This document shows, one piece after another, positions 3,260 to 64,000 of a stretch of DNA of 64,000 nt; the stretch's first letter is position 1; every line of letters begins with the position of its first letter. Origin of the DNA: a bacterium (GTDB lineage: Bacteria; Hinthialibacterota; Hinthialibacteria; Hinthialibacterales; Hinthialibacteraceae). The stretch lies in contig CAXXMV010000008.1 in assembly GCA_963662285.2 (NCBI GenBank), positions 672,001 through 736,000 of the forward strand, read 5' to 3'. The notes beneath the pieces are model-generated. The model worked only from the letters and a program-made list of their open reading frames with translations, was not told the origin of the DNA and made no database searches. The position numbers and the translations under genes are program-made.

Positions 3260-6200
3260 TTAATTAAACAACATCCATTGATTTACTTTCGTCTCCGGCG
3301 CCCAGACAGTTAATATCCCGTCTAAATGGTAAATAGGTATTTCATTCAAACCAATGTCATATGCATTAGAATTCTTAAATTCAATTGGATATTCTCCTTG
3401 CTGTGCATTTTGATCCACTTGGAACGCCAGTTGCATTACGTTGCCATTGCCGGTGAAACCTTCCGCGCGAATCCAGTTAAAGCGAACGAGATCGAGATCC
3501 GATGGATAGTGTAATGGATTGTGAGCATAGAGACCGTCTTGCGTAACGGCTCCCATAGGCAGTTCGATTAATTGTAAAATTCCATCGTCGTAATTGATAT
3601 CAAACTCCAGATTGCCCAGATTCTCCGCGTCCAACAGGTCTACGGACAACACAATCGTTTCTCCGGGTTTGGTTTCTCCGGATTGGATGGAAAGCGATGC
3701 GCCACCCTCTAGTTGATATATCTGATTTCCTTTACCGACAGCAAGAACTTTGGCCGCTGTTTGAGGCAGGAGTTCCGGTCCAGAATCGGGCTGAGTGCTG
3801 TCTCCATCCGAATCGGTTAACCTGATAACGTTCAGGCTTGCGAGGTCAATTATATACAGTTCCATTCCATCATCCCTATCAGAACTGAACAGAATACGGT
3901 TTCCTCTCTCATGCCAAACGGGATCAGTGTTAATAGCCGGAGAATCGGTTAACTGTTTGAGGTTTTGCCCATCTGCATCCATGACGAAAATATCTTCATT
4001 TCCACTGCGGGATGAAACAAACGCGATTTGTTTTCCATCCGGTGACCAGGACGGTTTGGTGTTGATGCCCTCTCCTTGGGTTAAGCGGATTGGATTACTA
4101 CCGTCAACGTCCATGATCCAAATATCCATCGAACCTTCACGGTCTGAAGCGAACGCGATTTTGCTTTGATCCGGGGATGCGGCGGGATAGCGCTCTGTGG
4201 AATCTGTGTTTGTCAGGCGGGTTGCGGATGAGGCTTTCAAGAACGCTTTGAACAACAAAATGTTGTAGCCTTTGATCCATTCAACCTTGTCGAAATGCCA
4301 GGTGCGCTTTTTCGATCCGGTAATGACAAGACCCGGGGCGGGTTTGCTATCCGAGAGGAAATACAACGCGACAACGAAATCGGCGGGGACGGAAACTTCT
4401 TCGATATCAAAATAGTTCCAGCCGATCTCCGTGGGTGTTGCGGCGCCTTCGGCCAGTACGGTTTCGCCGGGTTTGCCGCCATCCCAATTTAGAATTTTCC
4501 AGCCGAACTCAGCAAGCCCTCCCACGATATAAAATCCGAGCCGATTTAATTTTCCCGGAGCCGGGGCGGTGAATTGCTGACCGATTGCTTCATCTTTGGC
4601 GGCGAAATCATAACCATAATCGGGTTCCTGGTCAGAATAGGAGATTTCCCCTCCGCCACTGCCGCTAATCATGGCGGCGGGTTGCGTATATATTTCCGGA
4701 TTTCCATCCCGTTCGGAAATATAAATGACACTGTTTCCTATCCAGTTGGGGTCGTAATCCGGGCTTGGGTTGTCCGTTATTTGCTGAGGATTGGAACCAT
4801 TGTTATTCATCAACCACAGATCGGAATTGCCACTGCGTTCGGAAACAAATAGGACCTGGCTGCCGGTCGATGAAAAGCGGGGGCTGTAATCATCTGCGGC
4901 ATCTTTGGTTAACTGGATATGTTCTGACAAGGTTGGATCTTTCAGATAGATATCCTTGTTTGATTCATTACTGTGTGTATAGACATACGAATCCTGTTCA
5001 CCGGTATCGTCAAGCAGTTCCATCAAGCCGAATTCAGACATATTATGTTCCGGATCGATAGCGATGGCGTTGAGTTTGTATCCCGAGGGGATATCTCCAT
5101 ACACAACAAATTCATTTCCAAGAAGACGGCTGCTTCCTACAAAATACCTCCCCTGGTTTCCTCTATCCGCAAAGACTTGAATGATACTGTCCGCTGGCGC
5201 CATGCAGATACCGCTGATCATTCCTTTTGCAGTATCGATTTTCTTCACGGTGGGCGAAGCGACTTTCTTTGCGTCCTCCGAAATGTTAATTCCAGATTCT
5301 TCGTTCTGATAAATACTGTTATTGGATATCCGGTTACCGAGCGTACTTCCCCCTTCAATACGAATTGCGTGCTTCCCATTTCGGCTTATAACATTGTCTA
5401 CAATTTCGTTTCGATTGGCGCCGTCCCGCAATAGGATTCCGTAAGATCGGTTTGCATTGATCGTGTTTTTCGTGATTTTTGCATTGCGTATATTCTTTTG
5501 CAGAACAATGCCTATTTCGTTTCCATTGGAGGTTTCGTTTGAATCTGTATAATCCCCGATCAAATTGCCTACAATTTCAACTCGAGTATCGGCGCCTTCC
5601 GCGAGAATCCCTTCATCCGTATTGAAGGTAAAATTGTTTCCTTCCCCACGCTCGGGGCTGCCGATAACAACATTTTTTCCACCAGTGACATGAACGGCGG
5701 TCGCGCCTTGTTGACCACTGATGGCATTCGCCGTTATCTGGACGTTATTGGTCTCATAGCCTTGAATCAGAATGGCTGGATAGTCTTCTCCGCAGAAATA
5801 GCCGCCTCGATTGTTCTTTCCAATATAAATATTTTTGGAATTATTCATTTGCACCGCATGAAGTCCATTCCCATAAACGAACAATCCTTCCGCGTGATCG
5901 ATTCCATAGAGCCAGAAATTTGTGCACTCATCCAGAGAGAAACCGTTTAATGCATTTTCAAGCGCCTCGCCGGAATAAAATGTTGTATCCAGCGATCCCT
6001 CTCCAACAAAAAGACCGTTCCCTTGATTTTGGTAGTGACGCATATTGTTCATGATTGTGTTGTATGAGTTGATGATGTGGATGCCGTCACCAGTGTTGTT
6101 CGGTCCGATTTGCATGCTGTTCATAGTTGTATGTTCGCAGGAATCGATAAGAATGCCATGCCCTTGATTGGATTGGGACGTCCCCATCATACCGGACATC

Positions 6201-9200
6201 TCAACGTTGCTGGTATTTTTAAATACCATACCATTACTAAGATTATGTGATGTGATGATCGTATTGAGTTCGAATTGATTTCCCCCTTCAATCATCAAAC
6301 CACAGTCTTTGGATTGAAGGATTTCCAAGTCGTAAATGGAAATATGATTTGAGTTTTCTCCACTGATAACTAGCCCTTTATCATGATAGGCCACGTCGCA
6401 ATCGGTAAATGAAAGTTGGCTGGAATCTTCAATTTGGATTCCATTCCCGAATGTTTCGGTAAACGGTTGCGTATGTACTTGATCGCCGTCACTGGTATAC
6501 CCAACGGAAAGGTATTTGACGGTTAATGATTTTTCCTCTGAAAGCGTCCCTTTAATTCCATTTACTAGAAGACCGCCCAACTCGTTGACTCCCAATACAA
6601 CGTCTTTAATAACCGTTCCAAACGCGCCGTCTTGAACGGCAATTCCCCATCCTTTATTGGGATATGGAGGTCCTTCGTTTATGACATTAATTTGGGAGCC
6701 AATTCGAGTTTTGGTCAATCCCCCGCTCGATAGTATTTCATTATAATCGGTCTTTGCGCCGGAAATGGTAATACCATTCCCCTGGCTTTGGCCGATATAA
6801 ACATCGATAAGTTTGTTTTGATTAGCGCCGTTATCGATGCGAATGCCATCTCCCTTGTTGCCGTAGGATTTATCTTCAAGATATTCACCACCATTATACG
6901 AAGGACCAAAATGACTGTCACGAATTACATTAGAATGAGTATTTTCTCCCTCAATATAAATCGCATGGTTTCCATTATCGTAAAACTCACAATCATCAAC
7001 GATGTTGTTGTTTGCGCCATTGCGAATATGAAGGCCGTATTCTTGATTGCCTAATACATCATAAGCGCCTGTTTCCCAATTTACATATTTACCAAAACTT
7101 GAATATTTCAGCGTATTAGAATGAGTATTTTCTCCTTCTAAAATCATCCCGGTGACATTCCCGAAGAGGATAGTCATAAAAATATTACCGACGCAATAGT
7201 CATCAACATAAATACCCGCTTCATTGGCGGTATATGCTCCCCGCATTTCATTTAGTTCAGAATTGCGCAGCATCAAGCCATATTTGCACTCTGATATAGC
7301 GCCTACTGTATTAATTGAATTTCCAATACTGGAAATTAGTTCAATACCCGTATCACAGTTCGCTGCTTCGCACAAGAGTTCGTTATTTTGGGTTGATTCA
7401 AGAATAACGCCAGTTTGTGTAATCGAACCCGAATCAACAATTCTAAGGTCTAGGACATTCCCATGTCCTTCAACAACGTTCATTCCATAGTCTGGACAAT
7501 TGTCGATATGTATGTACAGAGTATTCTCCTGGCTATTTTCCAATCGAACACCGTAAGTTTGAGAATCTGAAATCAATGCCCTTACTGTATTTCCCCCGCC
7601 GCCTCTGATTAATAATCCTCCATTAGCAGGATTTTCAATGGTAATATTTTCAAATAAATTACCGAGACTGTTTTCAATGAGGATTGGTTCGTTTAAGTTA
7701 TTAAATGTACCCGCTTTTATAATGACGTTATTTTTGTCGAGTGTTATTTGAGAGGACGAGGTCACGTTTTCAAACGTATACGTGCAATTATCCTCAAATG
7801 TAATGGAGTTCATGGATAAATCGGCGCCCTTCATATCCAAAACGTCGCCCTGGCCAATATGAAGATTCCCAATCTGAAACGTTCCTTTTTCATCAGAGTT
7901 GGGAGAAATTAATTCAAAATTATCTTCCCCGTTATAGGCGTCTCGATCAAAATATTCTCCTGTCACAAAAACATAATCCGCTTTTTCCGGTAAATCACTG
8001 GCACTCGATGGATTTTCTTCACCCAGTTCCGGACCATCAAGACTTTCAGTAAATTGAAAAGATAATGAATCGTCAACATTTTTTGTATAACAATACCGAA
8101 CTTCTTTCTCGTGCGGATATTTATTGGGAGGTAATTTTTTTGAACTGATTATTCTATAACCTAGCGGACTATCATTATATTCAATTATGGATTCTAGGTT
8201 ATCATCATCGATGGGAATCAAATTTAGTTCTCCACGAGAAAACTGGGCCGCTTCGCTTAACGAAACCTGATAGGATTCAGGATTTGGAAAAATATAAACC
8301 GTCACCGTCGCCGCATTTGTTTGTGGGGGAGTAAACTCAATCCCAGGGCCACGTTTGATTGGCCATTCCCCGGACGGGCCGGAGGGATTCCATATCACAA
8401 GCGTCAAAACTTCGCTTTCATCACCCACCGGCATACCAAACCGGATTCCGGTTTCGCTAATCCGTTCGGAATCTATAAATACATCATCTAAAAGGCATAT
8501 AGCTTCTTGAAAGTTCTTCCCTTTGATCGTTACATATTCACCGCTTTTTGCCTCCGTCTGGTTATCCGCATCAATAACCGGCTTAGCAATAACGGTAAAC
8601 GGAATGGGTTCCGTTGTTTTCCATTCGTTTTCAATGGATAACTCTCCGGGATTTTTTAGATATAATTCCGTCTCTCCAGGTTTTAATCCTGGGGGAACCC
8701 GAACGATGAGTTTTGAATCGCTACGTTCAATTATTGTTCCCAAAGATTCACCGTCTCCATCTTTGAAATATACATACTCGTCAGACGCATCCAGCAAGAG
8801 ATTGATCCCCTCAATCGTCACCAAGGTTCCTTCAAAATCGGGAAATACTTCGTTATCCACTTTGGAGAAAACGTGATCTGGCAACGCGCTCCAAATTTTG
8901 GGGGTCGGCAAATAGGTGAAATCGCCTGAATAACTCCTATAATTTCTGTTCACATCGCCTGAATCGCCCGAACTGGCAGGCGTTCGCACGACGAATTTAT
9001 ACTTTGCCGTCGGATCGAGTCCCGAAGGAATCTTGACCTTTAACTGCTTCTCGGTTGCTTCAACAATCTCCAGTTTCGTCGCCAAATCCAAATCATGCTT
9101 GAAATCGACGTACCCCTTAGTTGATATATAGACGTTTGTCTCCGTGGTATGGAAGCGCTTACCTGTAATGGTGACGATGCTGTCCTGATAGGCCGATTCG

Positions 9201-11980: not shown

Positions 11981-12120
11981 TTTTCTCTCCCTGTATTAAA
12001 TAACTATAGAAAAACTAAAATTAATATCAATTAAGGTGCATATTGCGATAGAATTATTTTATTTTGTCATAAAAAAATGAGGTACACAACCTTACTACCT
12101 GGAAATGGAATTTCATAAAA

Positions 12121-47751: not shown

Positions 47752-49713
47752 TCAACGATACAATTCGTAATTCGTTACACCCGATTTAAAATCATTGAGA
47801 TTCCACAAGTACATCGCTGTATTTCTCGTTCCCGTTATAAATCCCGAACCATCGGGGATGAATTCGGTGTAGGTGGATTTCCCATCAAGCGTATGAATTA
47901 TTTCACCTGACGAGGCATTCCATAATTGGATCACATCACCCGTTTCTGTTCTTCCCGATGTTATAACATAGGAACCATCGGGAGAAATAGCGGAGGAAAA
48001 GATTCCTCTATCAAATTCGTCCATACCTTGGCAGAATGCACCAAATTCATGAAGAATCTCACCGGTTATTATGTCGATTAAATAAGCGCGGCTGTTATCT
48101 TCCAGCAGTGCAAGAGATGTTTTATTTACATATCCGGATAATTTCATTTCACTATCCAGGATCTCGTCTCCGGATTGCACATCGAAAATCTTTGTGAAGT
48201 ATAAATTTCCTGAATCCAATACATAGAAAACACCGCCAGCAAGAAGAATCTTGCCATCCTCCGATAAATGAACCGTATCAATGATGGGGTGTATTATCAA
48301 ACCCCATCCCTCAATATTTTTTACAAAAGAAAAATCCCGTATTGTTTCCCCTGTTTCAGCATCCCAAAGAGACACTTTTCCTTTATGCCCGGTCACATTT
48401 AATTTCCCATCAAATGAAGAAGTGAAAGCAAATACATCAAATTTTAAATCAAAGAAAGAAGTAGACTCTTTATTTGACGGGAATGTTTTTGTCAGCATGA
48501 TTTCTCCGCTTGTCATATCTATTGAGTCGAGGATTGTAGATTCGTCATTCAAGGTGTAAACCATCTGCAACAATCCATTGGAAGAAAAGGCGAACATGGA
48601 TGTTTCCGGCTGAATATCGAATGATGGGATAAAACTTGTCTGACCGGTTAAATCCCAAAATAAAATGGTATTTTCACAGTGCATATTGTCGGCTAAAGTG
48701 ATAAAAATCGTACTGTCAGGAGATAAAGCATAAGAATCAATTCCATCAAGATGACCGGCAAAATTCCGTATAACTGTACTGCTGCTCAAATCCCAAAGTT
48801 TCAGGATTCCAATAACCGAACCACAAAAAACCTGATTTCCATCCGTGGCGTATTGGATAAATCGGATAGGAGTTGAATAATCACCAAAGGTTTGAATCCA
48901 TTCTCCGGTTTCAACATCCCATTGGCTGATGGTTCCATCCGAACCAGTCAATACGGTTTTTTCATCTTTCGCGAGAGCGATTGAATTGCAGTTCTCTGTA
49001 TACTGCCGGATAATCTCACCGGTTTCGAGATCCCATAGCAAAGCCAGACCATTCCAACCGCCTGTAAACAATCGTTTCCCATCCGCTGAGAAGTCAGCAA
49101 AAATCGGTCCTCCATGCCCCGTGTGTTTAGATAATGTATGAATCAAAGCCCCGGTTTGCGTATTCCAAACTCTGATAACGTCATGCGCTCCTTCACCTAA
49201 ATGAGGAGTAATAATCTTGCTGCCGTCTGGAGAAAATTTCACGGGTCCTTGCCTTATCCCTTTCTTATAATTAAAAGACATGACAATCTCCAGTGTGTTT
49301 ATATTGATTAACTTGTCTTCCAGGAGTATTTGCTTTCCATCCGGTGAAAAATCGACAGCTCTTGCGGAATATGGAATTGTTAAAATATGCTTACCGGTTA
49401 GAACATCCCATAATGTGGCGTGTTCTTCTCCGCCCGCCAATAGTTGCGTCCCATCCGGTGAAAAAGCGATTCCATAATATTCCACTGGATCTTTAAAATG
49501 CTGAGTGATCTTTCCCGTTTCCAAACTCCAGATAAACACGCCGCCATTGCCGCCTGTGGCAAAGTGCTTACCATCGGAGGAAACATCGATTATGTGAAGC
49601 TCATTGAGACCCGGCATCCAAACCGGCTCGATCTCTTTTGCGTCTACTGAGATTTGAATGAATAGAATGATTGCGGTAATGATTCTATTCATTAAATAAA
49701 TAAATTTGTTCAT
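47752..49713 (-). CDS. Secreted WD40-repeat beta-propeller protein
   Basis: Signal peptide; repeated FSPDG...LWD..TG; C-terminal tail SGVTNYELYR. Confidence 0.88.
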   Translation of the reverse strand: MNKFIYLMNRIITAIILFIQISVDAKEIEPVWMPGLNELHIIDVSSDGKHFATGGNGGVFIWSLETGKITQHFKDPVEYYGIAFSPDGTQLLAGGEEHATLWDVLTGKHILTIPYSARAVDFSPDGKQILLEDKLININTLEIVMSFNYKKGIRQGPVKFSPDGSKIITPHLGEGAHDVIRVWNTQTGALIHTLSKHTGHGGPIFADFSADGKRLFTGGWNGLALLWDLETGEIIRQYTENCNSIALAKDEKTVLTGSDGTISQWDVETGEWIQTFGDYSTPIRFIQYATDGNQVFCGSVIGILKLWDLSSSTVIRNFAGHLDGIDSYALSPDSTIFITLADNMHCENTILFWDLTGQTSFIPSFDIQPETSMFAFSSNGLLQMVYTLNDESTILDSIDMTSGEIMLTKTFPSNKESTSFFDLKFDVFAFTSSFDGKLNVTGHKGKVSLWDAETGETIRDFSFVKNIEGWGLIIHPIIDTVHLSEDGKILLAGGVFYVLDSGNLYFTKIFDVQSGDEILDSEMKLSGYVNKTSLALLEDNSRAYLIDIITGEILHEFGAFCQGMDEFDRGIFSSAISPDGSYVITSGRTETGDVIQLWNASSGEIIHTLDGKSTYTEFIPDGSGFITGTRNTAMYLWNLNDFKSGVTNYELYR

Positions 49714-49753
49714 GTTGACATCACCCCATTATGATTTAGCTGACAAATCCTTC

Positions 49754-51505
49754 TTATTGATAATCCCGATAGTTCGTAACCTCAGAAAGAAATGATGGGG
49801 ATTCCCAAAATCGTATGGTTCCGTCACTGCCAGTGGATAAAATACGCCTGTCCTTGAGTAAGTAGATAGAACTTATTAAACCCAGGTGAGCGCAAAACGA
49901 AGATTGTACTGTCAAGGAATTTACATCTGCGATAAGAATATTATGTTTGAATTCCCAGATTCCTTCTTCTAAGATAATATACCCCGCACCGGGAGAAAAG
50001 GCCGCGGATTCCGTATAGCCCAAAGAGATATGATCGCGAAGTTGGAGCCCCCTGGTTAAATCCCATAATTCTGAATCGTGATTATCATCCATCATGCCAG
50101 TACAAAAAAATAGCCATTGACTGTCGCCAGAAAATACAGGGGGAGGACGGGAAAAACGTCTTGGTATAGCCATAGTGTAAATCGGTGTTTTCGAGTCAAT
50201 GTCCCATAAAATTGCTTCATCGTCATCATCAAAAGTAAGTATCTTTGTACTATCCGGAGTGAAAAAAGCACGGTCTCCTGGAAATGTATGCAAAATGTTT
50301 CCAGAATAATCCAACAATGAGCCACCGTTCAGGATATATTTTCCGTCCGGGCTAAAGCCGATGGATCGATTATGGGAATAAATTGGGATCGCTAAAATTA
50401 TTTCTTTTGTCAATGCATCCATCAGTAACGTTCTAACATTTCCAGAACAAACTTTCAAGAGAACATGGTTTCCGTCTGGAGATAGAGCTAAAGAATACGG
50501 TTGATACTCTTCCCCATTGAATTCTGTGAGAACCGTTCCTGCTTCAAGATCCCAAAGTTTGGCCGTAAAGTCTGCATGACCGGTTAATAATAATTTCTGA
50601 TCGCGGGACAATGACGATGCTGCTATCCCTTCATTATGTCCCTGTATAACACGAATTACTTCGCCGGAATTCACATCCAGAACATGAATATCTCCATTGG
50701 TTTGACCAATGAGTATGTGATTGGATACCGGACAGAGCGCCGAAGGCAGAACGGAATTATAGTAGGAATGATACGATGAGGAAAAAACCGTTTCCATCGT
50801 TTCTGTATTCCATAAAGTCAAAAGTCCGGATTTTGAATTGACCAAAACATGTTTCCCATCCGAGGAAATATGAAGGTAGAATATTGTTCCCGCTAATTCG
50901 GGGAAGAGTCTTTCGGTTTTTCCTGTATTTAAATCCATCAATACCGCGTTTTGATTTTGGATGTAAATAATTTTATTTTCAGAAAAATAAAATTGAGTTG
51001 AGAAACTAAAATCCCCCTCCAACCCTTTATTCACTTTTACATTGTCTGATGTTTCCAGATTCCATATTCGCAGTTCATGAGAACCATGAAATAGAGATTC
51101 ATATTCATTGGTTAAAAAACTCGTTCCATCTGGAGAAAAATCGACAGATCTCACGATTCCAGAAGAGGTGAATCTCTTTAATATCCTACCGGTCATAACA
51201 TCGTATAATGTAATTAGGCCATCCCAACTGCCGGTCAGCAATTGATTGCCATCCGGAGAAAAATCCATGGATTGCACGTCTTCATGAGTTAAATAAAACA
51301 AAATTTCCCCCGTATTAAAATCCCAAAGATATCCTCCTCCATTCCCGCCTGTCGCAAGATATTTTTCATCGGGAGAAACAGCAATCGCCCTTAAATTCCC
51401 TAAGGAATATTGCTTAAGTGGTTTTTGAATTTGGTCTTGAGCGTATAGTTGTGATGATACGAGAAAGACAAGCAGGATAGAATGTGTCAAAAAAACGGGT
51501 TTCAT
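49754..51505 (-). CDS. Secreted WD40-repeat beta-propeller protein
   Basis: SD GAGGTG; signal peptide; FSPDG/LWD repeats; tail SEVTNYRDYQ. Confidence 0.9.
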   Translation of the reverse strand: MKPVFLTHSILLVFLVSSQLYAQDQIQKPLKQYSLGNLRAIAVSPDEKYLATGGNGGGYLWDFNTGEILFYLTHEDVQSMDFSPDGNQLLTGSWDGLITLYDVMTGRILKRFTSSGIVRSVDFSPDGTSFLTNEYESLFHGSHELRIWNLETSDNVKVNKGLEGDFSFSTQFYFSENKIIYIQNQNAVLMDLNTGKTERLFPELAGTIFYLHISSDGKHVLVNSKSGLLTLWNTETMETVFSSSYHSYYNSVLPSALCPVSNHILIGQTNGDIHVLDVNSGEVIRVIQGHNEGIAASSLSRDQKLLLTGHADFTAKLWDLEAGTVLTEFNGEEYQPYSLALSPDGNHVLLKVCSGNVRTLLMDALTKEIILAIPIYSHNRSIGFSPDGKYILNGGSLLDYSGNILHTFPGDRAFFTPDSTKILTFDDDDEAILWDIDSKTPIYTMAIPRRFSRPPPVFSGDSQWLFFCTGMMDDNHDSELWDLTRGLQLRDHISLGYTESAAFSPGAGYIILEEGIWEFKHNILIADVNSLTVQSSFCAHLGLISSIYLLKDRRILSTGSDGTIRFWESPSFLSEVTNYRDYQ

Positions 51506-51515
51506 GTTTCACCTC

Positions 51516-53393
51516 TTATCGGTAATATTGATAGTCAGTAACAGTAGATAAGAATGATGGAACGTCCCAAAATCTTATAGTGCCATCTTCTCCGGTGGAT
51601 AAAATGCGCCGGTCATTAAGGAAATAAATGGAACTGGCAGGCCCTTTGTGAGCGCAAAAGGAAGATTTTGCTCTCATGGAATTGATGTCAAGAAATGAAA
51701 TTTTATGTTTGTTACTCCAGATCCCATCCTCGATAACAAGATATCTTGCCCCCGCAGAAAACGCAGCACTTTCTGTATAACCGGCAGATATGTCTCGGAT
51801 TTTAGTTCCCTTTGTTAAATCCCATAATTGTGAATCGTGGCTATCATCCATCATACCAGTACAAAAAAATAGAAGTTTACTATCTCTCGAAAATACAGGA
51901 GGAGGATAAGAAAAACGGCTCGGTATATCCATAGTATGAATCGGTTTTTTCGATTCTATATCCCATAAAATTGCTTCATCGTCATCATCAAAAGTAAGTA
52001 TCTTTGCACTATCCGGAGTAAAAAAAGCGCACTCTCCTTCAAACGTATGTATAAGATTTCCTAAATAATCCCGTAACGAACAACCGGTCAAGAGATAGTT
52101 TCCATCCTTGCTGAAACCAACCGTTCCACGATAGTGAGATAATGGAAATGTGAATAGTTTTTCTTTTGTTCTTGCATCCAGCATATACGCAGACTTTGGT
52201 TCTGAGCAACTGCATAACAAAACGTATTGTCCATCGGGGGACAGGGCAACATATCCTGATTCATAATTATCATCATTGAATTCTGTGAGAACAAGTCCTG
52301 TATTTAGATCCCATAGTTTCGCATAGCTAGTGAAATGCCCGGTCAGTAACAATTTTTGGTCCAGGGACAATGAAGACGCTGCAATTCCTTCATTATGCCC
52401 TTTAAAGGTTCGAATTACATCACCTTTACGTTCGTCCAAAACATCGATATCGCCATTGCTTTTTCCCGCAATTATACGCATTGAGCTTGGAAGGAAGGCA
52501 GTACAGCATAGATCATTAGAATAATGAGGTTTTGTAAATTCGATTTGGCCTGTACTAATATCCCATTTCGTTAATAGATCATTGGATGAAACTGTTAAGA
52601 GATATTTCCCATCTGGAGAAAAACACACTTCCCTTACAATTACTGAACCAAAAGTTGGAGTATCGTGATCGAAGATTTGGATTTCCTCACCCGTTTGTGC
52701 ATCATACAATATGGCGGCTCCCTTAATTCCAATCACTGCATATTTTTCATCAGAAGAAATATCCACGGAATTGATATTGTAATAATTTCCGCCTTCGTGA
52801 TAGCGCTTAAACGTTTGCAAGATTGTTTGCGTTTCAACATCATATAATTCGGATTTTCCGTATTCGGCAGTGAGAATTTTTGTACCTGAAGGAGTGAATC
52901 GGGCTTCGGAGGGATATGATTCATAGAATTCGTAGTTTTCACCTGTTTCGAGATTCCATATGAGAAACATGCTCGAGCCAAAAATGTACCATCCACAGGA
53001 GAGGAAACTTTTACCATCCGGAGAGAAATCGACAGAGAAAACAACTTCAGGAGAACTGTATTTCTTTTTCACTGTCCCGGTTCTCGTATCGTATAGTGTA
53101 ATTATTCCATTAACATTCCCTGTTAGCAAAAGGGCGCCATCCGGAGAAAAATCCATCGTCCAAACGTCTTCATGAGTGAGATAAAATAATATTTTTCCGG
53201 TATTGAAATCCCAGAGATAAGCCCCCCCGGATCCTCCCGTAGCGAGATATTTTTCATCGGGAGAAACAGCAATCGCCCTTAAATTCCCCAAGGAATATTG
53301 TTTGAGTGGTTTTTGAATGTGATCTTGTGCGTATGATTGTAATGATACGAGAAAGACAAGCAAAAGAGTATGTATCATAAAACCTGATTTCAT
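51516..53393 (-). CDS. Secreted WD40-repeat beta-propeller protein (close paralog of 49754..51505)
   Basis: Start reassigned to MKSGFMIHTLLLVFLVS (ATG 53393) by alignment with the paralog; tail STVTDYQYYR. Confidence 0.9.
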   Translation of the reverse strand: MKSGFMIHTLLLVFLVSLQSYAQDHIQKPLKQYSLGNLRAIAVSPDEKYLATGGSGGAYLWDFNTGKILFYLTHEDVWTMDFSPDGALLLTGNVNGIITLYDTRTGTVKKKYSSPEVVFSVDFSPDGKSFLSCGWYIFGSSMFLIWNLETGENYEFYESYPSEARFTPSGTKILTAEYGKSELYDVETQTILQTFKRYHEGGNYYNINSVDISSDEKYAVIGIKGAAILYDAQTGEEIQIFDHDTPTFGSVIVREVCFSPDGKYLLTVSSNDLLTKWDISTGQIEFTKPHYSNDLCCTAFLPSSMRIIAGKSNGDIDVLDERKGDVIRTFKGHNEGIAASSLSLDQKLLLTGHFTSYAKLWDLNTGLVLTEFNDDNYESGYVALSPDGQYVLLCSCSEPKSAYMLDARTKEKLFTFPLSHYRGTVGFSKDGNYLLTGCSLRDYLGNLIHTFEGECAFFTPDSAKILTFDDDDEAILWDIESKKPIHTMDIPSRFSYPPPVFSRDSKLLFFCTGMMDDSHDSQLWDLTKGTKIRDISAGYTESAAFSAGARYLVIEDGIWSNKHKISFLDINSMRAKSSFCAHKGPASSIYFLNDRRILSTGEDGTIRFWDVPSFLSTVTDYQYYR

Positions 53394-53429
53394 TGTCTCT
53401 CTTCCTTCAGTTTTGGTCTGCCTGAACAA

Positions 53430-55502: not shown

Positions 55503-55894
55503 TTGTTCTTTTCACCGTCTTTATGCCTTTTAAGAAGTGAAATCAGTTCCTCAATATCTTCTCCGGATAACTTGCTGTTCTTGACCATGTAAGAAAGAAG
55601 CGGGCCTGTTGTACCTTCCAGAGTGTTTCCCAATAGATTATCCGCTGCACTGGTCAGCGTTTTAATGGCGGAACGCGCTGGCTTGTATAGAAAACTGTTT
55701 CCAATCTGAGTCGTATTCAGAAATCCTTTATCAACAAGGCGCGCCAAAATAGTTTTTACCGTGCTAACAGACCAATTGTTGGGTTGACAAAGATCTTCAC
55801 AAATATCCCGGGCGGCGCAAGATTTCTTTTCCCAAACTGTTCTCATCACTTTCCACTCCGTCTGCGTTAATGGATCAACGGGTTTTCTTGCCAT
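55499..55894 (-). CDS. blaI: BlaI/MecI/CopY-family transcriptional repressor
   Basis: LTQTEWKVMRTVW, WSVSTVKTILARLVDKGFL, FLYKP, LSGEDIEEL; start reassigned to MARKP (SD AAAGGAG); ATGA overlap with the M56 gene. The symbol is family-level only. Confidence 0.92.
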   Translation of the reverse strand: MARKPVDPLTQTEWKVMRTVWEKKSCAARDICEDLCQPNNWSVSTVKTILARLVDKGFLNTTQIGNSFLYKPARSAIKTLTSAADNLLGNTLEGTTGPLLSYMVKNSKLSGEDIEELISLLKRHKDGEKNK

Positions 55895-55926
55895 GGTTCT
55901 CCTTTCCATACGTGGATATGCATATC

Positions 55927-56576: not shown

Positions 56577-57113
56577 TCAATAGAGATCATCAAGCATGGC
56601 TTCATACGTCTGACGTTCTTGATGCTTTTTGATATCCGTCCAATGTTTGAATTTACGTTTCTCCGGCGGAGTGCGGAAATGTTTATCTTCCTCGCTGTAC
56701 AACCAGTCACCTATCCATTTCCCTAAATTGGACGAGAAACGAGTGACTACATTCCGGGATTTACGCTCCTGGCCAACCATGCGGGAATTCTCCGCAGCAG
56801 AAGTGAAAACTGTTCGATCGATTATTTCCGCCCATGAAATCGCGCCCGAGACAAGAAAAGCTGCGGTCGAAATACGTCCTGCCCACTTGACTGTGTTAAA
56901 CGCCTTCATCGGGATGCGAGAGAGTTTGTTCATTTCAATTCCCGTCAATCCCATGTATTTCCATATTTTGGGAGTGATATTTAACCACCAACCCATCCGG
57001 CTGGTTCCAGCAATATAAGAGAGATATTCAAGATAGCCTGTGACTTTTTTAGGCCAACGAAGCCACCACAAATGCTTAGAATACGATGAACGCAGGCTGA
57101 AAATCGGGAATAC
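56577..57113 (-). CDS. In-frame continuation of the RHS gene: putative C-terminal cargo/toxin domain beyond a single TGA
   Basis: The 164-aa ORF 56577..57071 plus 14 upstream codons (VFPIFSLRSSYSKH) is in the same frame as the RHS ORF, separated only by TGA 57114-57116. Confidence 0.7.
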   Translation of the reverse strand, partial: VFPIFSLRSSYSKHLWWLRWPKKVTGYLEYLSYIAGTSRMGWWLNITPKIWKYMGLTGIEMNKLSRIPMKAFNTVKWAGRISTAAFLVSGAISWAEIIDRTVFTSAAENSRMVGQERKSRNVVTRFSSNLGKWIGDWLYSEEDKHFRTPPEKRKFKHWTDIKKHQERQTYEAMLDDLY

Positions 57114-60100
57114 TCAACCAATATCATCCATCATCATCGCACCACCAACCAGGACGCCGGCGACGAGTGTTGTAACATCACCGACGAATAAGCCCGACGG
57201 ATCTGAAAAACAAACCGGATTATGCTGCGCATACGCGTAAGGATTGATCTCCAGCGGATTTTCCGGACTGGGCCAGGCCGGATCACGGCTGAGAAAACAG
57301 CTGTATTCCGCGTCGTAATAACGGGCTTGCATCTGAAACAAATTTCCGTTGCCGCCCTCCTCCCGAACACCGTGACGACCCACAAATGTGAAAGGCTGAG
57401 TTGAGTTCCCTTCATGTGCGAGACGTTTCCCATAAGGCGTATACGAATAGGCGTCAGTGATCTGTCCGGCCTGATCGGTCAGCGCCAAAGTCGAACCAAG
57501 CCTGTCGAAATGGAAGAAGAAAACCTTATTGCCATTTGCTGAGTCAATCATGTAAAGGAGTTCGCCAGTCGGGCTCCAGACATAATATCGAACAAATGTT
57601 TCATTCTCCACATCGCGTTCACCGACGATGGGTGTATGGATAATGCCATAATTATAGTAATATTCCAAAGTTTGACCGTCTTCGGTACGCGAGATTAAAT
57701 TATCCATACCATTGTATTGCAAGGAAACATCGTCGATCGTAATAAGACGCGAGGCTTCATCCCACGAATACGCTCGCGAGGAGGATTTTGTCTGACGGCC
57801 TTGCGCATCATAGACAAAATTCGGTGATGCGATTTGGCTGGCGTTGTCGAATAGCAGAGAATTCGTCGCTAACGATAGATAATCTTCAGGGGAGAGCGGA
57901 GTCTGCATATCCACTTGTGTAATTTCGCCAGCGGTATTGAGCGTGTAGCGGAGATCGGCGAAATCTCCTTCCATGATTCCAGTTAGACGGTTCGCATCAT
58001 CCCACGCAAAATCAGTACTGACGCCGTTGGAGCGCACCAAGCCGGTCAGTCGTTCGTCGCTATCATAAACGAATTGAACTTTGGCGTTGGTGAGGTTATC
58101 CGACACCATTTCCAGAAGACCGGTTGTATCATTGTATGTATAGGAGATTATGACTGCACCGTTGTTGTAGGCAACTGTTTGCAACCTACTATTGTCATTA
58201 TAGGTCGCGTCGAAATTCAATCCATTCTGTTTGGTGTTCGTGATTTTTCCTTCAGCGTCATATTCGAATGCAATCTCATTGGCATCAGTGAGTCTATTGA
58301 GCGCATCATATTGAAAATCGAGTTGCAAACCACCGGAGTAGGATTTCTGTATCATGTTTCCTGCAGGATCAAATTGATGTTTCATCAATTGGCCATCGGG
58401 ATACATCACTTGGGAAAGTCGGCCGCATGAATCGTAGGAATAGTGGATAGTTTGGCTCAAGGGATCGGTTTGTGAAAGCAAGTTGCCCATCGGACTGTAC
58501 TGAAAGGCCCAAAGGCGGCCATTCATATCTTCCATACCAGTGACGTTACCCAATGCATCCCGCTGATACTTCACCGAGCCTATCCCGGCTTTGGTGATCT
58601 CGATAAGATCACTGCGACTATCATAGACCATCTCCATCGACCGCCCGAGTGGATCGGTAATCCGGGTGATACGGTTCATCGCGTCCCAAGTGAATGCCAT
58701 ATTGTTACCTAAAGGATCAGTAACTGCTTTAACCAGTCCGAAAGCGTCGCTTTTGAAGGTCGTTCTGCGACCTTCTGGAGTACTTTGGTTTGTAGGAATC
58801 GTTTCGTCATCATTCTCCATCGACCAGGTTTTTCCACCCTTCTGGACTGAGGCGATCGAACTGTGCTGATCGTAACCGTACTGGGTAACATTTCCGCCAG
58901 CATCCTGGGTTTTTGCAAGACGACCCATCGAATCAAAAGAAAAGGTGGTACTCTTCCCTAATCGGTTGGTTTCCACTATCCGTTGATCCATGTCGTTATA
59001 GCCATAGATTTGAGTATTACCGAGTGGATCGGTGATTCTTAAGAGATTGTCATTGGCATCATAGGTTAGTATTTGCATATGGCCATTTTCATCTGTATGG
59101 TTGATGACATTGTCATTCTCATCGTAAATTGTTTTTGAAGCGGCGCCATCTGGATTAGTGACCTGAATTACTCGTCCAAATGGATCATATTGATAGGTTG
59201 TTGTACCAATATCGGAATTGGTGGTGCTAATGAGATTTCCTTCATTGGTATAAGTATTGAGTAAAACGCCCCCAGCCGGATTGATTTGGGATAGCATCTG
59301 TCCATGTGCGTTATACGTGTACTGCCATTCGAATTGAGCCTGATCGATTTTGGAGAGAAGATTGCCTTTGCCATCATATGAATAGAGTTCCTTCGTACCG
59401 TCTGGGAACGCTTTTGAGGATGGTGGATAAAAGGAAAAAGTAACCGATCCGAATGCTTGTTCTTGCTTTAGGTAAGTCAGCCTGGTTGAATCTCCCCGTA
59501 CGTTTGTTACACCGGCAATCTGACCGGAAGCCTCATGATATTGAACACCGCTGGCGGCGCCCAGACGGTCGGTAACCTGGGTTCGGCGGTTGTTTTGATC
59601 GTATTGGACATTGACTTTTGCCCCAGTGGAGTCCGTGGTTCCGGTGAGGTTTTGCTGATTGGCGTGGGTATGGATTTCCGTGGAACCGTCCGGATAGGAA
59701 ATGAGCGTATCACCAGAATTCCCGTTGGCTTCGAAATTCAGTTCGGTAACATTTCCATCTCCATCCAATTGTTTATATACATGGCCTTTTTCATCATAGA
59801 ACTGAGTGGTGTGACAGTTCCCTTTCGGATATATCGCCTGGGTAATAAGTCCAATATACTTGTTATTTTCATCGTAGGAAAAGCGGGTGACGTGATCCAT
59901 AGGATCGGTAAGGGATGTAAGCCGGGCTTCATCATGGGTGAATGTCCAGGTCCTCCCCCTTCCATCATGGATCGAGGAAAGACGATTGTCGTCTCCGTAC
60001 GTATACTGGAGGGTGCGTCCCAAACCATCCTCGACTGAAAGCAGAAAGCCATCCGTATCGTAGGTGAGAGTATGAGCGTTTCCGTTCCGGTCTTCCAGAC

Positions 60101-63100
60101 GTTCCAGGCGGCGGTCGGCGTTAAAAGTATAAACCAGGTTTTTGCTTGGATCCAACATGTAAAATTTGCCATCCGGTCCGGTTTTAAGTTCGTAAGGAAT
60201 CTCTTCGTTGTTCTCCAGATTCCATCGCACGCTATCATGCTTGAATGTGATAACTCGACCGAGATCGTAAATGATCTTGGTGGTAGTATCCCCCTTATAG
60301 AGTCGAATGATCTGGTAATTGTGCAGCCAGTTCACCCCCGTAATATGGCCAAACGCGAGATCTACGTCGTGTTTTCTCGAAACAGCGCTTCCATAATAGA
60401 GACTGGCAGAAAGCGGGAGTGGCCCCCCAAGATCGAAGAGGGGTATCTCAAAATAGTATTCACCTGTTGCTGTATTTACAGGATCTTTCAAACGCCCGTG
60501 GTTCTTATTATTCGATGGAGGCGTTTCCTTGAAATGGGCGATGAATTTCCTGGTTTCGCCCGGTTCCCAGTCGACTGTGATCGTGACGGGATTCTTGGCG
60601 CCCACGCCCGAACTTCCCGAGAATTTATTGAACACATAACCGGGATTGGCGGAGGCCATCAGCATTACCGTATCGCCTGGCGAATAGCAGTCTTTAGCGG
60701 GATTGAGTGCGGCCACGCCCGCCTCAGATGGTTCGGAGGAAATCTCAATCATGCATCCTTTTTTGCGGATAGACCCAAAAACAGTGACGCCATCCAGGAC
60801 GATCGATTCACCGGCGACCTCAACCTGTTCCGGTGAAATGCCCGCTCCATAGGTGACGCAGGACGGATCGTCCATTTGGATCGTGTACTGGAGCAGGTAA
60901 CAGCGGCTTTCACCGGGCTGCAGTATCTCGCCAAGGTTGCTGAAAATCATCTTGTCCTTGCCCGGAGACTGCCCGAGAATCTTTCCCGCCTTCCCGCTGC
61001 ATTCTTCATCGCTGACGAGTGACGTCATGCTGATATCGGAGGGATTTCCCGTACCTTTGAAATCGAACTGCATCGAATTTACCGTACAGGGAGAATCCGC
61101 CTTCTTGTCCAAGATTAGTTGGACATGCAGGACCGATACAGTCTCCTCCTCGGCGGGAGCAACAGCGATCTCCTTCTCGATGGGATTGGATGAACCGGGA
61201 GCGAGACGCAGGGTTGTCGGGCCAATGAGGGGCAGAGGATCATAAACGTAGAGTTCTCCGTCAATAATACTTTCGTAGGGAGTGTCGCCGATCAGATCGC
61301 CGTCCTCATCCTCCCCGTCGTAATCGTTCCAATAATTCCCTCCTAGCGAAGGACCGCCTACTATGTTTTTCCCTTCCTTCTTAGGAACGTTCCAGTCGAT
61401 GCCGATGTCGTAGCCGCGTGCGTTTTCCGTCCATTCATTCGCACTGGCAAAAATGTTATTGAATACTATTACATCATTTCCTTTCACTGAGAGGCTTAAC
61501 CGCTTGTTGTCCAGGAACTGGTTGTCTTGGATGGTGGAATTCTGGAAATTTTCCAGCCAAACGCTGATTTCATCATTCCTCTGCGCCTTATTATCCCGGA
61601 TTGTGAATTCGTCCCCTTCTTTGACATAAAGCAGGCTGTTCGAATCGATACTTTGGTTGTTCACAATCTGGGCGTTTTTACCATTTTCGATCGAGATTCC
61701 GTAATCGCCGTTGTTGATGAATTCATTATTGGCGATGAAAAGATCTTCAACATTCAGAAGAAAGAATCCCGCAGTATTGTCATGGATAGTGTTTTGATCG
61801 ATCTTGATATGAAGGCCGTTGTCTATATAGGAGGCTTTCTTATTCTCGGTAAACTTGTTGTACTGAAGAAGAAGCGTGTTGACGAGTTCTTCGCCTTCCT
61901 GCCACGTATTTCCGCTCCAGAGATAACTTTGGGATGAATCTCCGCTCTCCACCGCGCGCACCGTGTTGGTGATAGTGTTGTTCTTGATGCGGACATCGTT
62001 TCCGACGAGTGAGATTCCTTTGGCCATGTTAACGTTCCAACCGATGGTCTGATAACCAGTGGCCATACCATCAATATGGTTGAATTGAATATCGCTATTG
62101 ACCAAATTGATGCATTCGAGCAAGTAGGGGAACGAGGGAGTAAAAATATCCATAGGTGGATTCATCGAGTCGAAGCGAAGCGTATTGTTTTCTATCATCA
62201 GGCTGTCACAGCCGGTGATGCGCGCCCACCCATACGCGTTACTGGTAAAATAGTTACCCGCTAGGATCAGGTGGGAAGAATTTTCTGCATTGACGGAAAG
62301 ATCGTAACTCTGGGGAATAAACTCTTCCTCAAAGGAAAACGTGCTATCGCGAATTTCGATTTGAGAGGCATAACTTAGAAAGATTTTTGAATCCGTGAAC
62401 CAACAATCTTTGAGCACTGCACCGTCAACCGGATAATCCACGCCGTCTCCGATGAGATTCAAAGCCGCGCTCTTGTAATCCCGCGAGTCGCTGAAACGCA
62501 AACGGGCGGCGGATTCCGCCGTGACGCCGGTTAATTTCCTTCGGACGGTAACGTAACAATTTTCGAAATTGGTGTCTTCCGTTTTCAGGTTGTAAACGTC
62601 TATCTCCGCATCATGGATTTTTAACTGATCGCCTCGAAGGACAAGAGTACAGCCTGGGTATCCATAGATGATTCCTTCATAATTACCCGTAAACGTTGTG
62701 AGTTCGCCAGCATCCTCGTAAAGATTAAGAACGCACTGAAGAGTACAATCATTGATTTTTACTGCGGAGGCGTTATTGATATTGATTTGGTTCTCTCGAT
62801 AACCATCAGAGGGAAGGTGGCCAGGTTTGTAAGTCATCGAAACTTGGTTGAACTCAATCGGAGAATCGCTTGTGCAGTCGAAGGTATAAGCACAACTCTC
62901 ATTGATCGCTGCAGGCGTATTCTCCAAAAGTAAATCACAATGATCGAATTCGGCGGATTGAGCAGATAAATTCTTGGCGTTCTTGCAACGTAAGGAAACG
63001 TTGGCAATCGATGCACCATCAATATCAAGGCTTGATCCTTCTGCAAAACTAATGATGGGACATTCCATTATATCGAGATATTCCTCAAGAAAATTCAACT

Positions 63101-63734
63101 TGACATTGTTGCCTAGATGGAGAGTAGAATTTGAAACGGATAGCGAAGATAAAATAGTGATATTTCCATTTAAGGCTAAAGTACCTCCATCGGAAATATA
63201 GATTTCACCTTCTTGCACTTTGACGCCATCCATGATTGACAAATTACCACCTTGTTCAATATTTAGAAAACTCACATTGTATTCGCCAACACTCCAAAGG
63301 CGACTCCAGGTCAAAAGTCCATAGGTAGCGCGGACCCATCTACCATCCGGAGTACTTACCATTTGGACGTTTGTCGACGTCGAACTCATCAGTACTCCCA
63401 CTTCAATCTGTATCCCATCAACTTCCTGCGATTCAAAACGGTACCACTCGAGTTTGTACGTGATCGATTCGGAAATATCCGGCAAATCCGCATCAAGATA
63501 CGACTTATCAGCCGGATTGGCGGATTCAAAAATCTGTTGGCCGTTTCGATATAGAATCCATTTTTCAAATTTGGGATCAGCGCTTTCCTCCCACGTCAAG
63601 TATGATTGCTGGTTGTCGGTGTATTCGATTTTGAGATTCGAGGCGGACGAGGATTGCATGAATCCCCAAAAAAGAATAAATAAACATGTAAAATGACATA
63701 TGACGTATTTTTTCCATTTCTTCTGTTTTGGCAT
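57114..63734 (-). CDS. Secreted RHS/YD-repeat protein: signal peptide, beta-helix (NosD-like), InlB-B-repeat-like domain, DUF6531-like domain, YD repeats, RHS core
   Basis: Start reassigned to MPKQKKW (SD GGGGAG); GGNYWNDYDGEDEDGDLIGDTPY (NosD-like); ASANPGYVFNKFSG; DPVNTATGEYY; many YD..G repeats; HFDRLGSTLALTD, YTPYG, ARYYD, SRDP, NPYAYAQHNPVCFSDPSGL. Confidence 0.92.
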   Translation of the reverse strand: MPKQKKWKKYVICHFTCLFILFWGFMQSSSASNLKIEYTDNQQSYLTWEESADPKFEKWILYRNGQQIFESANPADKSYLDADLPDISESITYKLEWYRFESQEVDGIQIEVGVLMSSTSTNVQMVSTPDGRWVRATYGLLTWSRLWSVGEYNVSFLNIEQGGNLSIMDGVKVQEGEIYISDGGTLALNGNITILSSLSVSNSTLHLGNNVKLNFLEEYLDIMECPIISFAEGSSLDIDGASIANVSLRCKNAKNLSAQSAEFDHCDLLLENTPAAINESCAYTFDCTSDSPIEFNQVSMTYKPGHLPSDGYRENQININNASAVKINDCTLQCVLNLYEDAGELTTFTGNYEGIIYGYPGCTLVLRGDQLKIHDAEIDVYNLKTEDTNFENCYVTVRRKLTGVTAESAARLRFSDSRDYKSAALNLIGDGVDYPVDGAVLKDCWFTDSKIFLSYASQIEIRDSTFSFEEEFIPQSYDLSVNAENSSHLILAGNYFTSNAYGWARITGCDSLMIENNTLRFDSMNPPMDIFTPSFPYLLECINLVNSDIQFNHIDGMATGYQTIGWNVNMAKGISLVGNDVRIKNNTITNTVRAVESGDSSQSYLWSGNTWQEGEELVNTLLLQYNKFTENKKASYIDNGLHIKIDQNTIHDNTAGFFLLNVEDLFIANNEFINNGDYGISIENGKNAQIVNNQSIDSNSLLYVKEGDEFTIRDNKAQRNDEISVWLENFQNSTIQDNQFLDNKRLSLSVKGNDVIVFNNIFASANEWTENARGYDIGIDWNVPKKEGKNIVGGPSLGGNYWNDYDGEDEDGDLIGDTPYESIIDGELYVYDPLPLIGPTTLRLAPGSSNPIEKEIAVAPAEEETVSVLHVQLILDKKADSPCTVNSMQFDFKGTGNPSDISMTSLVSDEECSGKAGKILGQSPGKDKMIFSNLGEILQPGESRCYLLQYTIQMDDPSCVTYGAGISPEQVEVAGESIVLDGVTVFGSIRKKGCMIEISSEPSEAGVAALNPAKDCYSPGDTVMLMASANPGYVFNKFSGSSGVGAKNPVTITVDWEPGETRKFIAHFKETPPSNNKNHGRLKDPVNTATGEYYFEIPLFDLGGPLPLSASLYYGSAVSRKHDVDLAFGHITGVNWLHNYQIIRLYKGDTTTKIIYDLGRVITFKHDSVRWNLENNEEIPYELKTGPDGKFYMLDPSKNLVYTFNADRRLERLEDRNGNAHTLTYDTDGFLLSVEDGLGRTLQYTYGDDNRLSSIHDGRGRTWTFTHDEARLTSLTDPMDHVTRFSYDENNKYIGLITQAIYPKGNCHTTQFYDEKGHVYKQLDGDGNVTELNFEANGNSGDTLISYPDGSTEIHTHANQQNLTGTTDSTGAKVNVQYDQNNRRTQVTDRLGAASGVQYHEASGQIAGVTNVRGDSTRLTYLKQEQAFGSVTFSFYPPSSKAFPDGTKELYSYDGKGNLLSKIDQAQFEWQYTYNAHGQMLSQINPAGGVLLNTYTNEGNLISTTNSDIGTTTYQYDPFGRVIQVTNPDGAASKTIYDENDNVINHTDENGHMQILTYDANDNLLRITDPLGNTQIYGYNDMDQRIVETNRLGKSTTFSFDSMGRLAKTQDAGGNVTQYGYDQHSSIASVQKGGKTWSMENDDETIPTNQSTPEGRRTTFKSDAFGLVKAVTDPLGNNMAFTWDAMNRITRITDPLGRSMEMVYDSRSDLIEITKAGIGSVKYQRDALGNVTGMEDMNGRLWAFQYSPMGNLLSQTDPLSQTIHYSYDSCGRLSQVMYPDGQLMKHQFDPAGNMIQKSYSGGLQLDFQYDALNRLTDANEIAFEYDAEGKITNTKQNGLNFDATYNDNSRLQTVAYNNGAVIISYTYNDTTGLLEMVSDNLTNAKVQFVYDSDERLTGLVRSNGVSTDFAWDDANRLTGIMEGDFADLRYTLNTAGEITQVDMQTPLSPEDYLSLATNSLLFDNASQIASPNFVYDAQGRQTKSSSRAYSWDEASRLITIDDVSLQYNGMDNLISRTEDGQTLEYYYNYGIIHTPIVGERDVENETFVRYYVWSPTGELLYMIDSANGNKVFFFHFDRLGSTLALTDQAGQITDAYSYTPYGKRLAHEGNSTQPFTFVGRHGVREEGGNGNLFQMQARYYDAEYSCFLSRDPAWPSPENPLEINPYAYAQHNPVCFSDPSGLFVGDVTTLVAGVLVGGAMMMDDIG

Positions 63735-63788
63735 GATATTTCTCTCCCCGTGATCTGGCAAAAAATGTTGTCAGGCGGCTATGCAGGA

Positions 63789-64000
63789 TTAATGACTTTG
63801 CCAATTTTGCACATTGGTTGTACCGCGTGTGATTTTCCTCTCCAGGAGATTTCCTGCAGAATCGTAGGTGTAAAGGATCTGGAGATCGTCCCGATAGATG
63901 ACTTTGAGCAGACGACCCGCAGAATCGTATTGATATGAGATAGTGTGGATCGATTCTGATTCAGTGAGTGGCATTTGCGCTGAGAGCAAATCAGGAAATA
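63789..64000 (-). CDS. Small YD-repeat protein (5' end beyond the window) ending in the shared C-terminal motif
   Basis: The frame is open to the window end; ISYQYDSAGRLLKVIY..ILYTYDSAGNLLERKI followed by TRGTTNVQNWQSH*; the stop lies 54 nt upstream of the RHS start. Confidence 0.75.
   Translation of the reverse strand, partial: FPDLLSAQMPLTESESIHTISYQYDSAGRLLKVIYRDDLQILYTYDSAGNLLERKITRGTTNVQNWQSH

Follow-up and report, generated by a model that had tools for sequence, protein, structure and literature searches.

Why should proteins with unrelated folds end in the same few residues? The question is raised by a stretch of 64,000 nucleotides, hereafter the window, from a bacterium of the candidate phylum Hinthialibacterota (positions 672,001 to 736,000 of contig CAXXMV010000008.1, assembly GCA_963662285.2). 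An earlier reading of the window, made from its letters alone and here called the sequence-only reading, had noticed that five proteins close with a similar tail of 9–10 residues behind three different folds, and had proposed a lineage-specific tag on exported proteins for outer-membrane export or surface attachment. A follow-up across the genome and other genomes bears out the tag itself: the tail is a real, modular and strictly terminal tag carried by a subset of exported proteins. The 195 carriers found in this genome fall into about 100 unrelated families; the original count of about three independent observations fell far short.

The genome to which the window belongs (G000; 7.29 Mb in 8 contigs, 92.5% complete, the window being C8:672001-736000) was searched after gene calling with a home-made hexamer model, which yielded 5276 genes covering 87% of the DNA. 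The pattern first proposed, with Trp also allowed at position -1, matched 57 of the 5276 proteins and made a sharper consensus visible. Trp was found at the fourth position from the end in 246 proteins, compared with about 81 expected. A matrix of 10 positions was then built iteratively from the tails and applied at a threshold of at least 12 bits. It matched exactly at the C-terminus in 155 proteins, with one residue after the motif in 38 and with two in 2, and among all 5276 proteins it matched none with three to five residues after the motif. These 195 carriers make up 3.7% of the predicted proteome; at the internal rate of 21 matches in 2,035,842 positions, chance would account for about 0.16.

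The consensus reads [P]-T(-9)-x-V(-7)-x-[DN](-5)-W(-4)-[SEM](-3)-[LIM](-2)-[YFH](-1). The motif of the sequence-only reading was real, although the pattern given for it was too loose; T-x-V-x-[DN]-W-[SEM]-[LIM]-[YFH] is the sharper form genome-wide. Trp(-4) is the strongest position of the matrix (5.8 bits) and the only near-invariant one, and Tyr or Phe at this position constitutes a real minor variant (15 C-terminal matches versus 0.12 expected). At position -5 any of D, N, E, G, S and H may stand, a variability too great for Asn/Asp-specific cleavage, which was rejected on this ground. Tyr, Phe or His is the last residue in 155 of the 195 carriers. Where a residue follows the motif, it is polar, mostly Glu (14 cases), Asn (5), Asp (5), Arg (5), Lys (4) or Gln (3), and such additions indicate that the tag does not need its free carboxylate at a constant distance. 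Among the internal matches, a strong copy (21.9 bits) lies 139 residues before the end of an 803-aa exported protein (G000:C2:537179-539590) and is followed by what appears by eye to be a staphylococcal-nuclease-like domain. This protein may be a tagged protein fused with a downstream gene. The idea that internal copies mark fusions of tag and reader was dropped, the best copy preceding this nuclease-like domain.

All five tails of the window were verified by translation of the minus strand, with stops at 3260, 47752, 49754, 51516 and 63789. Scored against the genome-wide matrix, with chance rates given by a random internal 12-mer scored in the same way, they are as follows.

3263..3295, minus strand: tail ETKVNQWMLF plus one extra Asn; 20.9 bits, chance 5e-6
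47755..47787, minus strand: tail KSGVTNYELY plus one extra Arg, the Tyr-for-Trp variant; 13.0 bits, chance 3e-5
49757..49789, minus strand: tail LSEVTNYRDY plus Gln, degenerate; -1.8 bits, chance 0.010
51519..51551, minus strand: tail LSTVTDYQYY plus Arg, degenerate; 3.1 bits, chance 0.0015
63792..63821, minus strand: tail TTNVQNWQSH with no extra residue; 15.7 bits, chance below 3e-5

Three tails are strong (3260, 63789 and 47752) and two are degenerate (51516 and 49754). All other predicted genes of the window score at most -4.8 bits, which agrees with the earlier remark on the absence of the tail from its signalling proteins and carbohydrate enzymes. The three preceding folds (cohesin, WD40 and YD repeat) were confirmed by Pfam. 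The gene at 3260-11980 encodes a 2906-aa exported protein with TIG, beta-helix, PD40 and cohesin domains, the cohesin (residues 2763-2875) standing directly before the tag. Exported WD40 proteins of 653, 583 and 637 aa are encoded at 47752-49713, 49754-51505 and 51516-53429, Pfam finding WD40 propellers in all three. These three had been taken for paralogs; the two with weak tails (49754 and 51516) are 54.6% identical over 630 aa, and the third is only 26–27% identical to both. The fifth gene, cut by the window edge, is complete in the genome (C8:735789-736067, or 63789-64067, starting 67 bases beyond the window end). It encodes a protein of only 92 aa, in which a clear signal peptide is followed by two YD repeats and then the tail, and the scan of tails with NCBIfam and Pfam models places an RHS/YD repeat within its last 40 residues.

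What kinds of proteins carry the tag? BLAST clustering of the 195 carriers without their tails gave 94 clusters by single linkage, or 103 at a coverage of at least 50%, the largest containing 59 and 38 proteins, respectively; the median carrier length is 520 aa. A strict signal peptide was called in 164/195 carriers versus 1520/5276 proteins overall (odds ratio 14.5, p = 2e-60), the enrichment that the sequence-only reading had suggested looking for at C-termini across the genome. Most of the 31 carriers that fail the strict call show a hydrophobic stretch near the N-terminus, and a twin-arginine motif is present in at least one of the 31. A type I secretion signal, which works without an N-terminal signal peptide and sends proteins out directly from the cytoplasm, does not agree with the 164 strict calls. 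Lipobox-like sites are rare among the carriers (8/195, versus 134/1356 untagged proteins with a signal peptide).

A Pfam scan of 40 carriers drawn from different clusters found a family in 20 of them. These families comprise CBM9, CBM11, LamG, peptidases of families S8, C1 and S15, a carboxylesterase and a beta-lactamase-type esterase, together with an MtrC-like multihaem cytochrome, FG-GAP, BNR, PGA_cap, PrcB_C, DUF5123 and a tyrosine phosphatase with leucine-rich repeats. They look like typical surface or secreted proteins. Some carriers, such as the multihaem cytochrome and the precursor of twin-arginine translocation (Tat) type, must fold before leaving the periplasm. Other classes are free of the tag: none of the 46 sulfatase genes of the genome is tagged, and neither is any carbohydrate enzyme of the window.

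Conservation of the tag was followed in one tagged S8 peptidase, used as the query of a homologue search against a protein collection. Of the 30 homologues nearest to it (identities from 100% down to about 36%), 27 have the tag at their very end, immediately behind the helix that closes the catalytic domain; a close homologue is named Candidatus Hinthialibacter antarcticus. In the other three of the 30, a linker rich in Pro and Thr and a further domain, for which Pfam has no match, take the place of the tag. Among the 90 homologues that come next and are more remote, none has the tag (0/90), and several end in a hydrophobic helix and a basic tail. Trp was found to be invariant in all 26 aligned tagged members, at a mean column identity of 40%; the tag is under purifying selection. 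An AlphaFold2 model of the S8 carrier built on this 26-member alignment (mean predicted local distance difference test score, pLDDT, 80.3; predicted template modelling score 0.83) ends its last helix at residues 716-726 and leaves residues 727-737 without secondary structure, with a pLDDT of 57 for the last block. Because of this coil and its low pLDDT, the tail is predicted to be a free, flexible extension of the S8 carrier. If it formed a strand, T-9, V-7, D-5 and Y-1 would lie on one face and W-4 and L-2 on the other. As both sets are conserved, the arrangement would be that of a ligand gripped from both sides, which suggests that the tail peptide is held on both faces.

How widely is the tag distributed? 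A DNA pattern for T-x-V-x-[DN]-W-x-[LIMF]-[YF]-stop, with the reversed pattern as control, gave 28 matches versus 0 in G000. It was applied to 401 genomes, 35 from the window's own class (G000 included) and 366 others. At least one match was found in 32/35 genomes of the class; the three without are 77%, 84% and 68% complete. Elsewhere 4/366 genomes have one match each, which is the control level (6 matches of the reversed pattern over the 401 genomes), and the two of these four matches that were listed end in TGG, not a stop. With a looser pattern the low-count genomes G023 and G028 still have 0 matches, and three other low-count genomes have 5, 1 and 4. The sequence-only reading had mentioned similar tails in OLB16 and Hinthialibacterota, and rightly so: Candidatus Hinthialibacteria bacterium OLB16, of the same class as G000, has the same five matches as G027.

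A strict-pattern scan of the whole collection, one genome per species, returned 32 loci, where about 13 chance matches are expected by our own arithmetic. Thirty of the 32 lie in metagenome-assembled genomes labelled Hinthialibacteria, 'Omnitrophota', Sumerlaeota/Sumerlaeales or 'bacterium', one of the 'Omnitrophota' genomes being identical to G019, a member of the window's own family. The remaining two are single matches in metagenome-assembled genomes of Lachnospiraceae and Bacillaceae. In a second phylum, some genomes of which are labelled Sumerlaeota at NCBI, 32/75 genomes have at least one match and 22/75 at least two, compared with 1 match of the reversed control over all 75. These matches fall in groups of genomes that are neighbours in the list (such as G426-G434 and G448-G457), and long runs are nearly or wholly free of them (one match in the 19 genomes G406-G424, none in G468-G475); the list order is assumed here to follow kinship. 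Ten loci of the second phylum were fetched, and 9 of them contain 14 tagged open reading frames (ORFs), many with visible signal peptides; 4/14 have any homologue in G000. The tag is restricted to certain lineages across two candidate phyla.

What could such a tag do? We lean, with modest confidence, towards a post-export, post-folding address label that routes its cargo to the cell surface or outside. This proposal is made because the carriers look like surface or secreted proteins, because some of them must fold in the periplasm, because whole classes of likely periplasmic enzymes lack the tag, and because the other sorting systems searched for in the genome were not found. The carriers would first cross the inner membrane by Sec or Tat. 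Each would then fold in the periplasm, with its last nine residues staying exposed as a flexible peptide. A dedicated reader would bind this tail, most likely by taking it up as an additional beta-strand gripped on either face, and would bring the folded cargo onto or through the outer membrane, so that it ends up on the surface of the cell or beyond it. Untagged exported enzymes, for example the sulfatases, would remain periplasmic. What we infer in this scheme is where the tag leads, how it is bound and that it has a reader of its own.

Candidates for the reader were profiled over the second phylum, with its tag-bearing and tag-free genomes, using either all 75 genomes or 5 test genomes. G000 has 8 secretin genes and ten cohesin-like modules, and a Pfam scan of 48 proteins from five secretion loci revealed three clusters resembling a type II secretion system (T2SS), an operon with a TPR-STN-secretin protein and two cohesin proteins, and a locus where a TPR protein accompanies two short secretins. 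Of two further secretin loci, gene order alone led us to read one as a type IV pilus cluster and the other as Tad-like. The TPR-STN N-terminal part of the 1057-aa secretin (C8:420-424 kb) is present in 70/75 genomes, and the T2SS marker GspK (PF21687) in 62/75, in both cases regardless of the tag. The 975-aa T2SS secretin matched 5/5 test genomes, with its best match in a tag-free one, and the adjoining 642-aa protein matched 0/5. The tagged S8 peptidase was considered as an enzyme like PorU, the transpeptidase that joins the cargo C-terminus covalently in type IX secretion (T9SS); at E <= 1e-50 it was found in 5/75 genomes, of which 3 are tagged and 2 untagged. A 2163-aa signal-peptide protein with a barrel-like C-terminus gave one weak match in 5 genomes. 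TonB-dependent transporters were rejected as docking sites, the genome having only 7. The tagged genes themselves are scattered (at most 5 in any 12 genes), and no common neighbour was found in the four densest neighbourhoods of G000 or around the 14 tagged genes of the second phylum.

Several of these loci have features of their own. The operon at C8:416000-433000 encodes, besides the 1057-aa TPR-STN secretin, a PilM-PilN fusion, two cohesin signal-peptide proteins, a FliG-like protein and a sigma-54 activator. In the T2SS-like cluster at C1:564048-566764 the secretin is split into adjacent genes for a 485-aa protein (N0 and Secretin_N) and a 414-aa protein (pore domain). The 2163-aa protein (C2:3068-9559) has no Pfam family and ends in a terminal Phe, as outer-membrane barrels do. 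Six TonB-dependent transporter genes, among the genome's seven Plug-domain genes, stand in tandem at G000:C6:1102000-1113500. Five neighbouring large proteins (1035-1522 aa) are encoded at C2:1568724-1590589; four of them end in an identical VNDGQIRINLNYPE and the fifth in a variant, three match the cohesin model, and two tagged genes flank the cluster.

A number of observations weigh against the address label. None of the six reader candidates profiled across the tag-bearing and tag-free genomes of the second phylum tracks the tag. The outer-membrane or surface destination is argued from the kinds of carriers and the tag-free classes, and one carrier has two periplasmic-binding-protein domains, which fits a periplasmic location. 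Half of the carriers scanned (20/40) are without any Pfam family, the gene calls and signal-peptide calls come from home-made heuristics, and one or two polar residues follow the motif in 40 of the 195 tags.

We put forward only tentatively a bolder reading, namely that Hinthialibacterota and part of the second phylum have an as yet unrecognised system which translocates folded Sec and Tat substrates across the outer membrane or attaches them there, and that the tail is its linear export signal. If this is true, the pathway would be a new one for secretion, no bacterial cargo tag known so far would be shorter, and the components should be sought among the many unannotated envelope proteins of these genomes.

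The alternative that survives best, possible if rather unlikely, is a docking peptide: the carriers would leave the periplasm by a general route such as one of the three T2SSs, and the tail, acting as a tiny dockerin, would then bind without a covalent link to a scaffold or polymer of the surface or to an outer-membrane protein. Many carriers are indeed binding modules (CBM9, CBM11, LamG and FG-GAP), the genome has the three T2SS-like clusters, 8 secretins and ten cohesin-like modules, and conservation of both peptide faces is expected of a tightly held ligand. However, no scaffold with repeated receptor modules was identified, the largest carrier of the window itself has a cohesin module, and T2SS components are equally present in tag-bearing and tag-free genomes, which is compatible with docking but lends it no support.

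A cleaved sorting signal is improbable. Here a periplasmic or surface transpeptidase would recognise Trp-x-Leu-Tyr, cut within T-x-V and link the new C-terminus to lipid, lipopolysaccharide or the wall. The motif does fall into two parts, [P]-T-x-V and [DN]-W-x-[LIM]-[YFH], and several remote S8 homologues end in tails of a transmembrane helix plus basic residues that resemble those of sortase substrates. A cleavage site in which Trp alone is near-invariant and position -5 accepts six residues would be unusual, however, and the genome yielded no exosortase and no other candidate enzyme.

We also give little credence to a recognition tag for a periplasmic protease or chaperone, for example one with a PDZ domain, by which the tail would govern turnover, activation or folding and not location. 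The PDZ domains of DegS and Prc bind aromatic or hydrophobic C-termini such as Leu-Tyr and Leu-Phe, which the end of the tag resembles. Against this count the polar residues that follow the motif in 40/195 carriers and conservation that reaches nine residues back, beyond usual PDZ ligands; no PDZ partner was identified and no PDZ domain was found by Pfam in the 48 secretion-cluster proteins, and for a degradation tag it is hard to see why about 100 unrelated families have it and 0/46 sulfatases do. The absence of any signal, with the tails arising by chance, by common descent of the carriers or from faulty gene calls, might draw on the fact that three of the five window carriers are WD40 paralogs, two with weak tails, but is refuted by the counts: 195 terminal matches versus about 0.16 expected, about 100 unrelated clusters, 28 matches versus 0 for the reversed DNA control, and 14 tagged ORFs in 9 of 10 second-phylum loci, only 4/14 with a G000 homologue.

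Around the tagged genes of the window, other neighbours were noted. The 92-aa tagged gene lies directly upstream of a gene for a 2215-aa RHS-repeat protein with beta-helix and DUF6531 domains (57114-63761, minus strand), and its stop overlaps the listed start region of that ORF. A BlaI-like repressor (55499-55909, minus strand) stands directly upstream of the three exported WD40 genes, as does a BlaR1-type M56 peptidase fused to Kelch repeats (53430-55502, minus strand). Together these five genes (47752-55909, minus strand) may form a sensor-regulated operon of exported propellers. About 13 same-strand genes without signal peptides, taken for cytoplasmic signalling proteins in the sequence-only reading, occupy 12640-38377 (plus strand), and the tag is in none of them.

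What would the tag mean for bacterial protein sorting? To our knowledge, the C-terminal sorting signals of bacteria have so far been either folded domains, as in the T9SS, or a motif followed by a membrane helix, as in the sortase family. A helix-free tag of nine residues on about 3.7% of a proteome would represent a new form and imply undescribed machinery. For two uncultured polysaccharide-degrading phyla it directly supplies a list of candidates for surface or secreted proteins, and the occurrence of tag-bearing and tag-free lineages within the second phylum makes the search for a reader a well-posed problem of comparative genomics. Its shortness would also recommend the tag for use in surface display.

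How does the tag compare with known systems? Judged by sequence, it matches no described sorting signal among the models and literature compared. The comparison with NCBIfam and Pfam sorting models, which the sequence-only reading had called for, gave no match over the tail for any of 23 forty-residue tails at E-values up to 10. The T9SS C-terminal domain model TIGR04183 had no match in the genome, and neither had the SprA model TIGR04189; both are weak evidence of absence, the control being silent for the former and, for the latter, silent in all 14 reference genomes. Exosortase (PF09721) had 0 matches, with a positive control in 1 reference genome, and sortase, rhombosortase and myxosortase were not searched for. 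In the available parts of the paper that named Hinthialibacterota (PMC9324843) the terms 'C-terminal', 'sorting' and 'secretion system' were not found, nor were 'C-terminal' and 'sorting' in those of a paper on Sumerlaeota (PMC8092238). In the portions of the literature that motif strings and keywords brought up, the tail was not described and only the known sortase-type panel surfaced.

That panel, comprising LPXTG/sortase, PEP-CTERM/exosortase, GlyGly-CTERM/rhombosortase and MYXO-CTERM/myxosortase, consists of tripartite signals, according to the available part of a preprint (bioRxiv 10.1101/2023.06.07.544157). Like the tag, they place a short conserved C-terminal motif on many unrelated exported proteins of particular lineages. 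Unlike the tag, they continue after the motif with a transmembrane helix and then a basic tail, and a membrane enzyme cleaves them, whereas the tagged protein stops 0–2 residues after the motif without any hydrophobic helix; the earlier distinction from LPXTG and PEP-CTERM, and from the far longer T9SS domain, was well founded. The genome has 31 exported proteins with a transmembrane-plus-basic C-terminus, by their look ordinary membrane proteins with no common motif.

The beta-signal of outer-membrane proteins, read by the beta-barrel assembly machinery (BAM), shares with the tag its position in about the last 10 residues of Sec-exported proteins and its aromatic last residue. It forms the last strand of a membrane barrel, with hydrophobic residues at -1, -3, -5 and so on. 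In the tag, -3 (Ser/Glu/Met) and -5 (Asp/Asn) are polar and it is -4 (Trp) and -2 (Leu) that are hydrophobic, and the carriers belong to soluble families (S8, CBM9, LamG, WD40 and cohesin) and not to barrels, so that the loose likeness noted at first finds no support. The dockerin of cellulosomes is likewise C-terminal and docks secreted carbohydrate-active proteins onto a scaffold by pairing with cohesin, and cohesin-like modules exist in G000; however, it is a duplicated calcium-binding module of about 70 residues (PF00404), compared with 9 for the tag. None of the 23 tails matched it in Pfam, PF00404 not having been searched genome-wide.

Peroxisomal targeting signal 1 (PTS1) resembles the tag in being a very short C-terminal label, exposed after folding, on folded cargo of many unrelated families, and offers a model of the way in which the tag might act. 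This eukaryotic signal, SKL-COOH, is read by the TPR receptor PEX5 and needs a free carboxylate. It differs from the tag in belonging to another domain of life and another compartment, in having three residues and in requiring that carboxylate. The T9SS C-terminal domain (type A, TIGR04183/PF18962), known from Bacteroidota and allies, is like the tag C-terminal, modular, lineage-restricted and attached to many unrelated proteins with Sec signals. Its cargo, which can be folded, is also similar and includes peptidases, carbohydrate-binding modules and adhesin-like repeats. In contrast to the nine residues of coil that make up the tag, it is a folded beta-sandwich of about 70–100 residues. By analogy, the address label proposed here would be akin in function to the T9SS C-terminal domain of Bacteroidota and in form to the PTS1 tripeptide.

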